Positions 1,760 through 36,418 of a stretch of 36,418 nucleotides of DNA are shown here, piece by piece. The DNA is from Candidatus Nomurabacteria bacterium (GTDB taxonomy: Bacteria > Patescibacteriota > Minisyncoccia > Phycocordibacterales > UBA9973). The stretch is taken from the NCBI GenBank assembly GCA_943356375.1, contig CALRET010000003.1:1-36418 (forward strand), read 5' to 3'. Position 1 is the first letter of the stretch. Each line of letters begins with the position of its first letter. The notes beneath the pieces are model-generated. The model made no database searches. It had not been told where the DNA came from and saw only the letters and a program-made list of their open reading frames with translations. The position numbers were made by a program, and so were the translations under genes.

Positions 1760-1797
1760 AGGTGCTAGGTTCTAGGTTGTAGGTTCTAGAAAAATAC
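1760..1797. repeat. 7-bp tandem array (AGGTTCT type x4) followed by AGAAAAATAC
   Basis: aggtgct aggttct aggttgt aggttct agaaaaatac. Confidence 0.85.
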
Positions 1798-9250: not shown

Positions 9251-9883
9251 TTATTTAATTTTAGGAAAGAAAAACCGAATAGGAGAAAAGATAATCTTTG
9301 TACTTCTTCGAGACAAATTAAATAAAATCCCAATAGTAAACAACGTGAGCGACAATGTCGGATTTGCAAAACTTGTTGTAATGGCAACAACAGCACAGAA
9401 AACAGGAAAGAGAATTCTTGTGTATGCATGAGCGGTTTCCATCGGGGACGTTTCCTCATTTTCAATAGTCTCTGCAATAGTTACATATCGACGCATCCAG
9501 AAAAGTGAAAGCCCTATAGCCATAATATTGAGTGCGAAAATAATTATTGCAAGTTGTGATGTACCATAGTGCCCAAGTAGGTTTGAAGAAAATGGCACGA
9601 GTGCCACAAAAAAGAAAAACAATGCATTTATATTTGTTAATTTTGCATCGATATTTTTTGCATAGACTGATGCAATAAAATGGTGTGCGCGCCAATAAGT
9701 AAACAATAAAGAGAAACTAAGTAGATAACTAAGGAAAAGTGGTATATTCTTTTTGAGTGCAAATAAAAGTGAGATATCGGACACCCCTGGCGGCAACAGT
9801 GGCACACGAATTTCAAGCACAATAAGAGTCATTACGATGGCAAAGATACCGTCAGCAAGCGATTCAAGTCGAAATTGTTTCAT
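9251..9883 (-). CDS. TMEM175/DUF1211 family potassium channel-like membrane protein
   Basis: RLESLADGIFAIVMTL signature, YW-x-AHH, about 6 TM helices. Confidence 0.88.
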   Translation of the reverse strand: MKQFRLESLADGIFAIVMTLIVLEIRVPLLPPGVSDISLLFALKKNIPLFLSYLLSFSLLFTYWRAHHFIASVYAKNIDAKLTNINALFFFFVALVPFSSNLLGHYGTSQLAIIIFALNIMAIGLSLFWMRRYVTIAETIENEETSPMETAHAYTRILFPVFCAVVAITTSFANPTLSLTLFTIGILFNLSRRSTKIIFSPIRFFFPKIK

Positions 9884-31268: not shown

Positions 31269-33317
<2,049 letters not shown>

Positions 33318-34037
33318 TTATGGAGTCAATGATTGTATCTGTGGTCCTCCTGGTAAGTCAACCACTGTGTCACCTGATCCTCCACCTGAAGGAACACCTC
33401 CACCACCAGGACCCCCTAAACTACCTGATCCCCCTGGACCACCACCTCCTGGTGGAAGAACTATTACTGGATTTGGATATGTTGCTCTTACTGAACGTTC
33501 AATAGATTTTGGAGATAAAACAGGTTGAAATGAACCATCACCTGTGCATTGAGCAGTAAAACCACGAGAAGTGATACGGGTATGTGATACAGATACACCA
33601 TTAACATCTATTGGAAAATTTTTGTTGACAGAAACAACCGCACAAGTATCTAGTGTTGGCGCAAACTCAAACATATACATGTCCAGTGATGGTGTACTAA
33701 ATGAAATTGTTTGATCATTACAATAAATTGGATTTAATTGTCCTGTATAAAAGACATTAGTATTATTCCCTATGTCCCAATACAATGCACATTCAGCTCC
33801 AGTATCAGCTGCGAAAAAAGCGATATTTGCATCTCTGGCTTCAGATGATAAGACCAATTCTTTATAAGTTACATTTGCAATACCAATCGCCATAGTAAGA
33901 ATAATACCGGCAATAAGAACAGTGAACAGAGCAACGAAACCACCTGAAGAGCTAATAGCTAGTAGCTTACAGCTTGTAGGTAAAGAATCCTGAACTCCGA
34001 CTTTGTTGTTTTTACTTTTTACCATTTGCTGTGTCAT
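33318..34037 (-). CDS. type IV minor pilin, PilX-like, with Gly/Pro-rich tail
   Basis: GF-VALF hydrophobic helix lacking E5; AFFAADTGAECALY. Confidence 0.8.
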   Translation of the reverse strand: MTQQMVKSKNNKVGVQDSLPTSCKLLAISSSGGFVALFTVLIAGIILTMAIGIANVTYKELVLSSEARDANIAFFAADTGAECALYWDIGNNTNVFYTGQLNPIYCNDQTISFSTPSLDMYMFEFAPTLDTCAVVSVNKNFPIDVNGVSVSHTRITSRGFTAQCTGDGSFQPVLSPKSIERSVRATYPNPVIVLPPGGGGPGGSGSLGGPGGGGVPSGGGSGDTVVDLPGGPQIQSLTP

Positions 34038-34038
34038 A

Positions 34039-34599
34039 TTATAGTATCCAATTAAATAAATTCTCTTCTGCTTTTACTGAATACACAGTGGTACTCGACC
34101 CCTGTGTCCAAGAAACTTCAGATATAATATTCAATTCGTCAGCAGAGAGATCTTGTGCTCTGAGTGTACGGTAAAATTTTGTCGCAGAAAAATTAGAATC
34201 TTGAATATACCCTTTTCCACCCGGACTATCATCATAGTAAACTAAACAATCAATAGGACTCACGCATGAAGTAAACGGCGGCGTACCACCATTCATCCAA
34301 AAAGTATAATCCAAACTACAACCATCCTGACAAGTAGGAATCATTAGATTAACAAAATCTGTCCACCCGGTATTACCCATAACAGTGGTATCACGAATAT
34401 TCCTCGTTAACTCAATTCCCTCTTGGGCAAGGTACGATGCAATAAGACGATTTTTTGCATACTGAACATCTCCTACTCCATGACTACTGATAACAATAAT
34501 ACCAAGGATTGAGAACGAGAAAATAAAAATCGCCACCAGTGTCTCAATAAGTGTGAATCCAGAATTTTTACTTTTTAGTTTTAACTTTTTACTTTGCAT
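34039..34599 (-). CDS. type IV minor pilin, PilV-like
   Basis: GFTLIETLVA prepilin motif; A.YLAQEGIE..RNIRD. Confidence 0.88.
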   Translation of the reverse strand: MQSKKLKLKSKNSGFTLIETLVAIFIFSFSILGIIVISSHGVGDVQYAKNRLIASYLAQEGIELTRNIRDTTVMGNTGWTDFVNLMIPTCQDGCSLDYTFWMNGGTPPFTSCVSPIDCLVYYDDSPGGKGYIQDSNFSATKFYRTLRAQDLSADELNIISEVSWTQGSSTTVYSVKAEENLFNWIL

Positions 34600-34604
34600 A
34601 TATA

Positions 34605-35273
34605 TTATTCATCTACTTGTCTCTGAGATATTATCGTCTCGAGCGCAAAGGGTGTCACCACTCCTCTATAGTCTATCACCCCTGCGAGACGAATTCGAAC
34701 GTACGGTTGACGAGCTGGACTTTCAGGAGTCGCAGAGCCAATAACTATAAAACCAGACTTTGCCATATCTATATGTACTTCTGTTGGAAGTAGATTATAA
34801 AAGTCATCGTTACTTGACGTCAGTCCAAATTCTGATTTCTGCAATATTCCATCATCACTTGTACCAGTTATTCTATAGACATATTCATCTCCTATGCCCG
34901 TAACAGGATCCCAATCTCCATCCACTTGTTCAAATGAAAACTGATAGGTTAAAACTGAACAATCGCCACCACTAGTTCCACAATTATACGCACTACCTAG
35001 TCTCGCATTACGCGCAATATCTTCCATAGCAAAACTGATCGTATCTATAACAGAACGAAGTTTTTGATTTTTCTTGTGTACTGATGTGACAGTAAGCACT
35101 GCACCGATCCCAATTAAAATAATAATCGTAAATAATCCTGCGGAAATCATCATTTCGATTAGCGTGAATCCAGCTGAGCAGGTTCTAGGTTCTAGGTGCG
35201 AGGTTCTAGAAGAATTCCCAATTCCGGATTTCAATTTGTATTTTGTAAATGGTAATTTAAAATTGTATTTCAT
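34605..35273 (-). CDS. type IV minor pilin, PilW-like
   Basis: GFTLIEMMIS prepilin motif. Confidence 0.87.
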   Translation of the reverse strand: MKYNFKLPFTKYKLKSGIGNSSRTSHLEPRTCSAGFTLIEMMISAGLFTIIILIGIGAVLTVTSVHKKNQKLRSVIDTISFAMEDIARNARLGSAYNCGTSGGDCSVLTYQFSFEQVDGDWDPVTGIGDEYVYRITGTSDDGILQKSEFGLTSSNDDFYNLLPTEVHIDMAKSGFIVIGSATPESPARQPYVRIRLAGVIDYRGVVTPFALETIISQRQVDE

Positions 35274-35276
35274 ATT

Positions 35277-35999
35277 TTATTGTGCGCTTATTTGTCCGAT
35301 TCGTGAGACTGAGACAGTACGTTCTTGTCCACGTGAAGACCTCAGTGTTATTTTAGCACTAATAAGTGTTCCAATATTAGGATCATTAACAGCAAAAGAT
35401 GCCTCTAGTTTCGGTCTCGTAAAAATAATATCAAGCGATTGGAAGGTTGATATAGAAGCAAGATGGGGACCATTTGCATCTATTACCTCTATTCCAGAAA
35501 TAATGAATTCATCTGGAAGTGACAAGACATCAATACACTCATTGTCTGAATAATGAACGACATCACAATATGAAGTAGAATTATCATATTCGCCAATAGT
35601 TGCCATATCAAAATCAGCAAAATAAACAAACTGAGTGTTTTCAGTAATATCAAAATGAACTCCATATGCAGGTTTAAGTCCATTAGCAAAATCTGTTGGT
35701 GTAAATGTATTACTCCCTTGGGTCACTTGTGGCGGCATACGCCCAGAGCTTCCAGAAAGTTGTGCTTGTCGGATTTGCAATGCAACATCTTGCACAAGAT
35801 TTTGCAATTTCACATTTGAACTAAAATCAGTAAAATTAAACATCACAACACTAGAGAGGGCTGCAAAAATAGAAATGACGATGATGAGCTCGACGAAAGT
35901 AAAACCAGATGTTCGTGAAGCTTGAAGCTTGAAGCTTGAAGCAGAAAAATCCTTAGTCCCAACATTTTTCTTTTTACTTTTTTCTTTTTGCTGTGTCAT
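35277..35999 (-). CDS. type IV minor pilin, FimT/FimU/GspH-like
   Basis: GFTFVELIIV motif, IRQAQ, C-terminal GQI; start moved to ATG 35999. Confidence 0.87.
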   Translation of the reverse strand: MTQQKEKSKKKNVGTKDFSASSFKLQASRTSGFTFVELIIVISIFAALSSVVMFNFTDFSSNVKLQNLVQDVALQIRQAQLSGSSGRMPPQVTQGSNTFTPTDFANGLKPAYGVHFDITENTQFVYFADFDMATIGEYDNSTSYCDVVHYSDNECIDVLSLPDEFIISGIEVIDANGPHLASISTFQSLDIIFTRPKLEASFAVNDPNIGTLISAKITLRSSRGQERTVSVSRIGQISAQ

Positions 36000-36003
36000 T
36001 TTT

Positions 36004-36418
36004 TTATCCGAATAACAATGCAATTGAACCCAAATCAAACCCACAGAAAAATACAATGGCGAGAGCGGTGACCAAAAATGGCGCAAATGGGAGCGGGGTT
36101 TTTGTGGTAAATGTACGACCTTTAACAACAAGCAGAAATACCCCAACAAGTGCACCAAGCCAAAATGCCATAAGAAGTGTGGTTGCTCCACCAGATAAAC
36201 CAAGAAGGAATCCAATACCCAACATGAGTTTTGCATCACCTAACCCCATCATTTCACCCTTTGAGAAAAACCAAATTGCCCAAAATGGAAATGCGAGAAT
36301 TGGACCCGCTAATACATGCCACAACCCTGGTAATGAGAATGTTTGGAAAACACCATCACCAAAAAACATTCCAATAAATGCGAGACCTGCAAAAAGATAG
36401 ACCAATCTATCTGGAATA
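36004..36418 (-). CDS. pilD: prepilin peptidase (3' part, runs off window)
   Basis: MGLGDAKL catalytic GxGD motif, LPFAPFL. Confidence 0.9.
   Translation of the reverse strand, partial: IPDRLVYLFAGLAFIGMFFGDGVFQTFSLPGLWHVLAGPILAFPFWAIWFFSKGEMMGLGDAKLMLGIGFLLGLSGGATTLLMAFWLGALVGVFLLVVKGRTFTTKTPLPFAPFLVTALAIVFFCGFDLGSIALLFG

Follow-up and report, generated by a model that had tools for sequence, protein, structure and literature searches.

A pilin operon with heptamer arrays in its leaders

The window analyzed here is a stretch of 36,418 nucleotides (nt) from a Candidatus Nomurabacteria bacterium (contig CALRET010000003.1 of assembly GCA_943356375.1). It is contig C3 of a draft genome of 657 kb, with 38% G+C and 49 contigs, and its homologues carry the source names of Paceibacteria/Parcubacteria relatives. 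The minus strand encodes a prepilin peptidase and, after it, four pilin-like proteins, whose genes are named here pilin 1 to pilin 4; ligA, a gatC-like gene and gatA come next, in an order that relatives share. The operon is packed stop to start, with gaps of only 1–5 nt between its genes; the stop codon of the peptidase gene lies 4 nt ahead of the pilin 1 ATG. We found that the leader of every pilin gene, between the ATG and the codons of the predicted cleavage site G/F (the slash marking the cut), contains short tandem arrays of 7-nt units (Table 1).

A first-pass annotation of the window had proposed period-7 DNA at this position in all four pilin genes. Our analysis with Tandem Repeats Finder (TRF) and with a period scan bears this out, with three clear arrays and a degenerate fourth; the two leader peptides that it quoted are also correct. 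The period-7 scores of leaders 1 to 4 were 20, 12, 12 and 8, while neighbouring, non-multiple periods scored at most 5. Across the genome, only 37 of 13,072 windows of 100 nt score at least 12, and 156 score at least 8. Given the rarity of such windows, the values in four adjacent leaders are far beyond chance.

The arrays differ in quality. The pilin 4 array, first noted as AGCTNNN at 33950–33977, was not called by TRF at score 30. It scores 8 at period 7 against at most 5 at the other periods from 2 to 13, and aligns without gaps to the perfect array of pilin 1. TRF also revealed a second array in the pilin 1 leader (35965–35989), absent from the first-pass annotation. This array and that of pilin 3 are A-rich tracts of lysine codons, whose best match fractions at another period reach 0.74 and 0.61, respectively, and they are weaker evidence. 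The A-rich arrays of pilin 3 and pilin 1 start 4–10 nt after the ATG, and the CT-type arrays lie 57–69 nt after it in pilins 1 and 2 and roughly likewise in pilin 4.

The codon layout contains no in-frame ATG, GTG or TTG between any leader array and the G/F codons, so the arrays must be translated. We considered start-codon capture, by which an array of a former 5′ untranslated region would have been absorbed into the open reading frame (ORF), and saw nothing that supports it, as there is no in-frame start after any array. The leader mRNAs fold no better than shuffled sequences (z = −0.56, −1.04, +1.72 and +0.07). GGATT-like words stand to the left of the arrays, read as KDFS in pilin 1, as GNSS in pilin 2, and as GGATTCTTTAC compared with GGTTTCGTTGC in pilin 4. 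Target-site duplication of the GFT codons is nevertheless unsupported for the leader arrays: the relative P0010 has a TGNSS piece without an array, and the left flanks of arrays elsewhere frequently read TG[TC]ATTT, which weakens this reading further.

As for the genes themselves, pilins 1–3 exceed the Pfam cut-off for the N-terminal methylation motif PF07963. Pilin 4 has no Pfam or NCBIfam match and carries F instead of E at +5. Its homologue P0034 (39% identical) bears the NCBI name "pilus assembly PilX N-terminal domain", and we take pilin 4 to resemble PilX/GspK-type subunits without Glu5. Models of PilV, ComGE and GspI match the N-terminus of pilin 3 with scores under their cut-offs. We gave up assigning subtype names to the four pilins, since the NCBIfam models fit the N-terminal motif only, below family cut-offs. 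The cognate peptidase is at hand, with a PF01478 gene immediately upstream of the pilins, and from sequence this neighbouring enzyme is predicted to cut the leaders at G/F. The Gly/Pro-rich, low-complexity tail of pilin 4 (PPGGGGPGGSGSLGGPGGGGVPSGGGSG...; 33318–33480) faces a Pro-rich ORF on the opposite strand that is probably spurious.

Table 1. Genes, leaders and heptamer arrays of the window, with arrays discussed from other contigs (C, contig; aa, amino acids)
Feature	Position	Strand	Basis and remarks
Prepilin (type IV leader) peptidase gene	36004..36417	−	Pfam PF01478 Peptidase_A24, 27.7 bits vs cut-off 26.5; truncated by contig end
Pilin-like gene 1	35277..35999	−	240 aa; PF07963 N_methyl 22.1 bits; TIGR02532 20.1 bits
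Pilin 1 leader, MTQQKEKSKKKNVGTKDFSASSFKLQASRTSG/FTFVE	35904–35999	−	Gene calls of relatives likewise begin MTQQ
A-rich array, pilin 1 leader, AAAAAGT/AAAAAGA type (TRF unit TTTTTCT), read QKEKSKKKN	35965..35989	−	TRF 3.6 copies, 88%
Perfect array, pilin 1 leader, (GCTTCAA)x3.9 on coding strand (unit TGAAGCT), read ASSFKLQAS	35916..35942	−	TRF 100% match, score 54; period scan 20
Pilin-like gene 2	34605..35273	−	222 aa; PF07963 23.0 bits
Pilin 2 leader, MKYNFKLPFTKYKLKSGIGNSSRTSHLEPRTCSAG/FTLIE	35169–35273	−	ORF
CTAGAAC-type array, pilin 2 leader (TRF unit AGGTTCT)	35180..35209	−	TRF 4.3 copies, 82%
Pilin-like gene 3	34039..34599	−	186 aa; PF07963 31.1 bits
Pilin 3 leader, MQSKKLKLKSKNSG/FTLIE	34558–34599	−	ORF; 14 aa, ordinary length
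A-rich array, AAAAAGT type (TRF unit TTTTTAC), spanning nearly all of pilin 3 leader	34565..34595	−	TRF 4.4 copies, 83%; period-7 score 12
Pilin-like gene 4	33318..34037	−	239 aa; PilX-like, with F at +5 and a C-terminal tail rich in Gly and Pro
Pilin 4 leader, MTQQMVKSKNNKVGVQDSLPTSCKLLAISSSGG/FVALF	33939–34037	−	ORF
GTAAAAAGTAAAAAC module, pilin 4 leader	34008..34022	−	Identical 15-mer in mnmA loop composite, C23
Degenerate CTACAAG-type array, pilin 4 leader: CTACAAG CTGTAAG CTACTAG CTATTAG CTCTTCA	33945..33979	−	Codon layout; period-7 score 8
ligA array, CAAGTTT type	31630..31661	−	TRF and alignments; 11 residues
ligA array, AAGCTCC/AAGCTTC, linker ahead of BRCT domain	31486..31518	−	TRF and alignments; 12 residues
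gatA array, (AGCTACA)x4.7, read QLQATSYKLQTN, variable segment	29744..29776	−	TRF 96%; aligned to PDB GatA and 18 relatives
Intergenic CTAGAAC-type array upstream of 16S rRNA gene	1760..1789	−	About 300 nt from 16S 5′ end
mnmA, locus L069 (G000:C23:3015-4136): three adjacent arrays in variable loop, AGTTGAA, GTAAAAA and CTACTAG types	~C23 3653–3730		
Nine start-proximal arrays	C1 18531, C2 6548, C6 10023, C6 12896, C11 12891, C17 7010, C25 7651, C29 6340, C32 6508		

Heptamer arrays are dispersed over the genome

TRF found 25 period-7 arrays with a score of at least 40 in the whole genome and none in any of five Markov-2 shuffles; an excess was also seen at periods 14 and 21. Our period scan yielded 55 arrays on 27 contigs, comprising 30 intergenic arrays, 22 coding arrays and 3 at gene edges. 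The units are mostly of the form CTANNNN (CTAGAAC, CTACAAG, CTACCAG, CTAGACC, CTATACC and CTAAACC), with a GTAAAAA type in addition. CTAGAAC is the commonest unit of the intergenic arrays, and the leader unit types CTAGAAC, CTACAAG and GTAAAAA all occur elsewhere in the genome, both within and between genes.

Nine of the 46 listed arrays end 4–5 nt before the ATG of a predicted gene. All nine are in forward (CTA...) orientation, with no Shine-Dalgarno (SD) motif between array and ATG. An SD-like 4-mer at −20 to −4 is present in only 45 of 670 predicted genes, these being our own rough gene calls. Intergenic, start-proximal placement is therefore typical for the family, and the leader arrays, lying inside ORFs, are placed atypically.

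Inverted pairs of arrays are found in three intergenic regions on contig C6. The genome also has three PF05635 (23S_rRNA_IVP) genes, on C1, C10 and C26, and none in the window. The gene on C1 (C1:38770-39200) is bracketed by inverted CTACAAG-type arrays. The one on C26 (C26:9030-9075) has an array just upstream, followed by TAAAA and the ATG, and its other side is off the contig. The remaining PF05635 gene has inverted arms that are less clearly heptameric.

Some further observations concern individual members. Words resembling TG[TC]ATTT (for example tgtatttct, gcattttg and gtatttac) stand in front of many arrays, counted by eye, and hint at a conserved head of the element. A (TAAACCC)x4.3 array at C1:18531-18560, 5 nt upstream of an ATG, is probably one member of the CTANNCC series; its unit is the heptamer of the plant-type telomere repeat. 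The 16S rRNA gene near the intergenic array of the window lies at the contig start (11–1466, minus strand; Rfam 1228 bits). Its last bases are unlike what we take to be the conserved 3′ end, possibly through an insertion or a contig-edge effect, and we draw no conclusion from them about an anti-SD sequence.

Arrays inside housekeeping genes bear the signature of a coding filter

The leader unit types recur inside gatA, ligA, iscS, tsaD, mnmA and the gene of the CCA-adding enzyme. The array of the cysteine desulfurase gene iscS is read as QEPRTYNLEPRTY, and that of tsaD as KSYKLQATSC. All arrays in housekeeping genes occupy segments that vary among homologues. Compared with 18–21 family relatives, the net change in length is +3, +3 and 0 aa for the gatA and ligA arrays, which are about 33 nt long and near-perfect. 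Compared with solved homologues, tsaD is longer by 7 aa (21 nt, three units) and iscS by 9 aa. The gatA and ligA arrays resemble replacements more than simple insertions, and GatA of the relative L039 has a repeat with a period of 8 aa at the site of the gatA array. That arrays replace sequence as a general rule is contradicted by the gains in tsaD and iscS.

In 12 of the 14 listed coding arrays, the reading frame runs along the C-rich strand, which is free of stops. On the opposite strand, every unit contains TAG, which comes into frame within three units. Units are altered where TAG would fall in frame, as in CTCGCAC, the second unit of the pilin 2 array, and ATATAAC in iscS. The strand bias and the edited units are the signature of sequence that arrived or arose irrespective of coding and was then filtered by selection.

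Array-bearing leaders are a derived state

We searched 40 GTDB relatives, all of other genera and with at most 42% identity to pilin 1, and inspected 41 leaders in 11 orthologous clusters. The period-7 signal was absent from 40 of these 41 pilin leaders of 11 family relatives, and most leaders were 5–20 aa long. The exception, in L005, is a perfect AACTTTC x3.7 array that arose independently. Within the genome studied here, three other pilin genes have leaders of 3, 8 and 10 aa without an array. Leaders of relatives have also received other kinds of insert: L003 has a palindrome with a 10-bp stem (CCAGCACCAA...TTGGTGCTGG) in the leaders of two pilins, and L010 a GC-rich hairpin insert in a pilin leader. 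From the 40 array-free leaders, the short leaders elsewhere in the genome and the inserts in L005, L003 and L010, it follows that the long, array-bearing leaders are a derived state and that the leader is a recurrent insertion site, a sink, in this family. In L002, two adjacent pilins share similar extra leader segments. A GGRTTTAC word stands on either side of the palindromic inserts of L003 (G016) and L010 (G021), as a duplication of a target site at the codons of the cleavage site would leave. A metagenome scan returned a single matching locus, L016, at 42% identity.

The closest relatives (P0002–P0010, P0026 and P0027) were compared as proteins, and their arrays are deduced from peptides. 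The pilin 1 of P0003, 67–71% identical, has the leader MTQQIVKSKKKNVETKDFSASSFKLQASRNSG, with an SSFKLQAS segment of equal length. The pilin 1 of P0004 and the pilin 2 of P0009, encoded on one contig, have a common leader with a SYKLQTT or NYKLPIT segment at the array position. The leader of P0008, an orthologue of pilin 2, matches the pilin 3 leader of our genome in 14 of 14 residues. P0005, an orthologue of pilin 1, has the leader MNTSKKLKLKSKNLG, which includes SKKLKLKSKN. Leaders of 9, 27 and 17 aa occur in P0007, P0010 and P0027, respectively, and P0026, an orthologue of pilin 4, is called from an internal Met only. The array type at the pilin 2 site thus differs between relatives, being CTAGAAC here and a CTACAAG-like peptide in P0009.

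Leaders are exchanged as modules

The first-pass annotation had regarded the leaders of pilins 1 and 4 as homologous cassettes on dissimilar pilins. We confirmed this: the alignment of the two leaders is free of gaps all the way from ATG to G codon, and the mature proteins show no relationship (best BLASTP E 0.66). Both leaders consist of the GTAAAAAGTAAAAAC module, a spacer and a CTACNAG array. The same composite is found in the mnmA loop on C23, where GTAAAAAGTAAAAAC is followed by a spacer with GARTTCA and a CTACNAG array, the whole aligning to the pilin 4 leader; the last two of the three mnmA arrays (GTAAAAA and CTACTAG types) form this cassette-like unit. A similar composite lies on C4 at about 9630–9694. 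The leader cassette is therefore one copy of a composite that is dispersed in the genome.

A contig of 300 nt from another study (run X3) points in the same direction. It contains 196 nt identical to the body of pilin 1 (35711–35906), starting from the G(−1) codon; 56 other letters link these, with the frame kept, to a start like that of pilin 2 (35234–35278; 5 differences in 45 nt). This contig is short and of low depth and may be a chimera; the matches of run X4 and most of those of run X3 are array-sized pieces from other loci. Taken together, these data indicate that leaders pass as modules between paralogues and between strains. The exchange would be accounted for by gene conversion that starts in the conserved DNA coding for GFTLIE, where alone these pilin paralogues are similar at the nucleotide level; this would also explain how one cassette came to stand on unrelated pilins.

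A probable explanation: the leader arrays as tolerated passengers

We consider it probable, if far from certain, that the leader arrays are members of the genome-wide heptamer family, akin to the short tandemly repeated repetitive (STRR) and TAACTGA repeats discussed below, which were retained in the only dispensable DNA of an operon without spacers, with exchange of leader modules superimposed. The first-pass annotation had offered cleaved leaders as neutral landing sites as its alternative reading, and this is the one favoured by the genome-wide arrays, the derived leaders and the module exchange. Under this explanation, dispersed heptamer tracts of about 25–35 nt, mostly CTANNNN with the A-rich GTAAAAA type in addition, would have become fixed in the class III signal peptides of four adjacent pilins, in an operon lacking intergenic DNA, the usual home of such arrays. 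A leader that is cut off at G/F presumably needs little beyond some positive charge and Gly at −1; being removed and having few requirements, it would be the only stretch to tolerate 30–60 extra nt. Selection would then have retained the stop-free orientation alone, with units edited where TAG came into frame. The outcome would be leaders of 32–35 aa, compared with 5–20 aa in most relatives, which then evolve as exchangeable modules through gene conversion. We observed directly the arrays, the family to which they belong across the genome, the lack of arrays in most orthologous leaders and the swapping of modules; neutrality, cleavage at the predicted site and the conversion mechanism are what we infer.

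Several points weigh against this explanation. Five arrays fall within about 340 nt of leader DNA, compared with about 20 in all coding DNA of the genome. This concentration exceeds what permissiveness alone would give, and certain targets may be preferred or the arrays may confer an advantage. The units of the perfect pilin 1 array must have been homogenised recently, and the unit type differs at a fixed leader site between relatives, so the arrays are dynamic. The length of the SSFKLQAS segment, kept at 67–71% identity of pilin 1, could reflect constraint rather than neutrality. Cleavage at G/F after a leader of 32–35 aa is assumed, and the comparison of contigs is blind to minority length variants. 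The passenger reading leaves unexplained why arrays are so concentrated in leaders, why some coding arrays are perfectly homogeneous and why the unit type changes while the site stays fixed.

In another reading, the arrays would be the product of an active, site-directed process, possibly linked to the PF05635 cassettes, that writes tracts of about 30 nt of a single heptamer at the 5′ ends of genes, overwriting sequence in place. In the pilin operon, such a process would drive a rapid turnover and exchange of leader modules and, occasionally, a heritable ON/OFF switch of individual tip pilins. Overwriting in place is suggested by the net change of 0 to +3 aa in gatA and ligA and by the differing unit types at one leader position. 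We regard this process as a doubtful candidate. A somewhat better one, though still unlikely, is a cis role in the mRNA, where the arrays, poor in G and unstructured, would offer standby sites for ribosomes or binding sites for proteins within the leader codons of an operon without spacers. The start-proximal arrays, with their forward orientation and lack of an SD motif, and the scarcity of SD-like 4-mers in the genome speak for such a role, and a matching placement is reported for TAACTGA repeats, for which MacGregor 2015 (PMC4679880) proposes translational control. The A-rich arrays right after the ATGs of pilins 3 and 1 could aid SD-independent initiation, and the start region of pilin 3 folds at 0 kcal/mol. 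However, the CT-type arrays lie outside the usual initiation window, well past their own ATG and over 500 nt away from the start codon that follows; arrays are also found mid-gene in long genes, and nearly all orthologous leaders of relatives do without them.

The main inference of the first-pass annotation was phase variation of the opa kind, in which slipped-strand gain or loss of one heptamer would frameshift a minor pilin and switch the composition of the pilus tip. This is mechanically possible. Genes for a surface structure carry the arrays near the 5′ end of their coding sequence, either other frame meets a stop 5–55 codons after the array in each gene so that a change of ±7 would be a clean OFF, the perfect pilin 1 array implies recent turnover of units, and the call of P0026 from an internal Met would, at the protein level, fit a broken 5′ end. 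We nevertheless found it unsupported and judge it very unlikely. The arrays are not confined to contingency genes, as they also occur in gatA, ligA, iscS, tsaD and mnmA, where a switch-off would be harmful. The tracts have only 3.6–4.4 copies, with that of pilin 1 alone perfect and the rest matching at 82–88% or degenerate; the known switches that work by slippage have longer, perfect tracts. In a second sample, contigs covering four of the five arrays (33300–34057, 34489–34922 and 35864–36010) are identical to the window there, the fifth lying at a contig break, and no ±7 variant was seen among contigs, which cannot show minority variants. Furthermore, P0003 keeps the length of the array-encoded peptide, and strains differ by whole modules that have been replaced, always in frame. 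We also considered that the long leader acts as a protein, its extra 18–19 residues slowing or ordering processing by the peptidase or holding the minor pilins in an inactive state before assembly. Type IVb pilins are known to have long leaders, the feature is present in all four pilins of the operon and in none of the three other pilins, and the pilin 1 leader peptide is kept in P0003. Yet P0005, P0007, P0008 and P0027, orthologous pilins of close relatives, have leaders of 9–17 aa, neither the sequence nor the array type is conserved at the site, and the pilin 3 leader is of ordinary length. We hold this to be the least likely of the explanations.

Significance and relation to known repeat systems

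If the arrays are tolerated passengers, the operon is a concrete case of a highly compact genome in which a cleaved signal peptide is the sink for repeats, selfish or neutral. It illustrates the filtering of repeats by coding DNA, with the sense orientation alone surviving and units edited at in-frame TAG. It is also a warning that short non-triplet repeats in the leaders of surface proteins need population data before they are read as contingency switches. In the leader modules that minor-pilin paralogues and strains exchange, we have a small, testable example of concerted evolution confined to a segment that can be dispensed with, and the natural leaders of 3–35 aa on related pilins are a ready series for the tolerance of prepilin peptidase. 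Finally, a candidate-phyla genome and coding sites are added to the still unexplained phenomenon of heptamer arrays.

One known system for comparison is that of simple-sequence contingency loci. Neisseria opa genes carry CTCTT pentamer repeats in signal-peptide DNA, and 7-bp repeats lie upstream of Haemophilus hmw genes. The leader arrays share with them a tract that is not a multiple of three in the leader DNA of a surface protein. Unlike contingency loci, the leader tracts are short and mostly imperfect, occur in housekeeping genes as well, and show no copy-number polymorphism among contigs.

Rickettsia palindromic elements (RPE), reportedly described by Ogata et al. in 2000, are said to be selfish DNA inserted in frame in protein-coding genes, palindromic and 100–150 nt long. 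Like RPE, the arrays are short repeated elements of a reduced genome which housekeeping proteins tolerate in frame where the site is permissive. The arrays differ in being direct 7-nt repeats of about 30 nt, without a hairpin or inverted repeat; the palindromic leader inserts of L003 and L010 are closer in kind to RPE. The PF05635 cassettes with inverted heptamer arms share unit families with the leader arrays, but the latter are solo, in one orientation, without an inverted partner or a PF05635 gene in the window.

The STRR heptanucleotides of heterocystous cyanobacteria, reportedly described by Mazel et al. in 1990, are said to be dispersed tandem heptamers of several families with no established function. 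In these respects the arrays are alike. STRR are said to lie mainly in non-coding DNA of large genomes, unlike the arrays here, and the likeness carries no claim of descent.

The placement of the arrays matches that of the TAACTGA repeats of marine Beggiatoaceae, Cyanobacteria and Bacteroidetes, for which translational control was proposed (MacGregor 2015, PMC4679880). Both are short, dispersed, tandem sets of 7 nt, mostly intergenic; both stand forward, a few nt from a start codon, without an SD motif; and both have stops in all frames in one orientation, with few copies in ORFs, at the protein periphery (PMC4679880). Unlike TAACTGA, which is one heptamer, many units coexist here (CTAGAAC, CTACAAG, CTAGACC, CTATACC, GTAAAAA and others), in a 657-kb candidate-phyla genome, with arrays in essential enzymes and five concentrated in the leaders of one pilin operon. 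This kind of element is thus already known from the literature, and the niche in class III leaders and the exchange of leader modules are modest additions to it.

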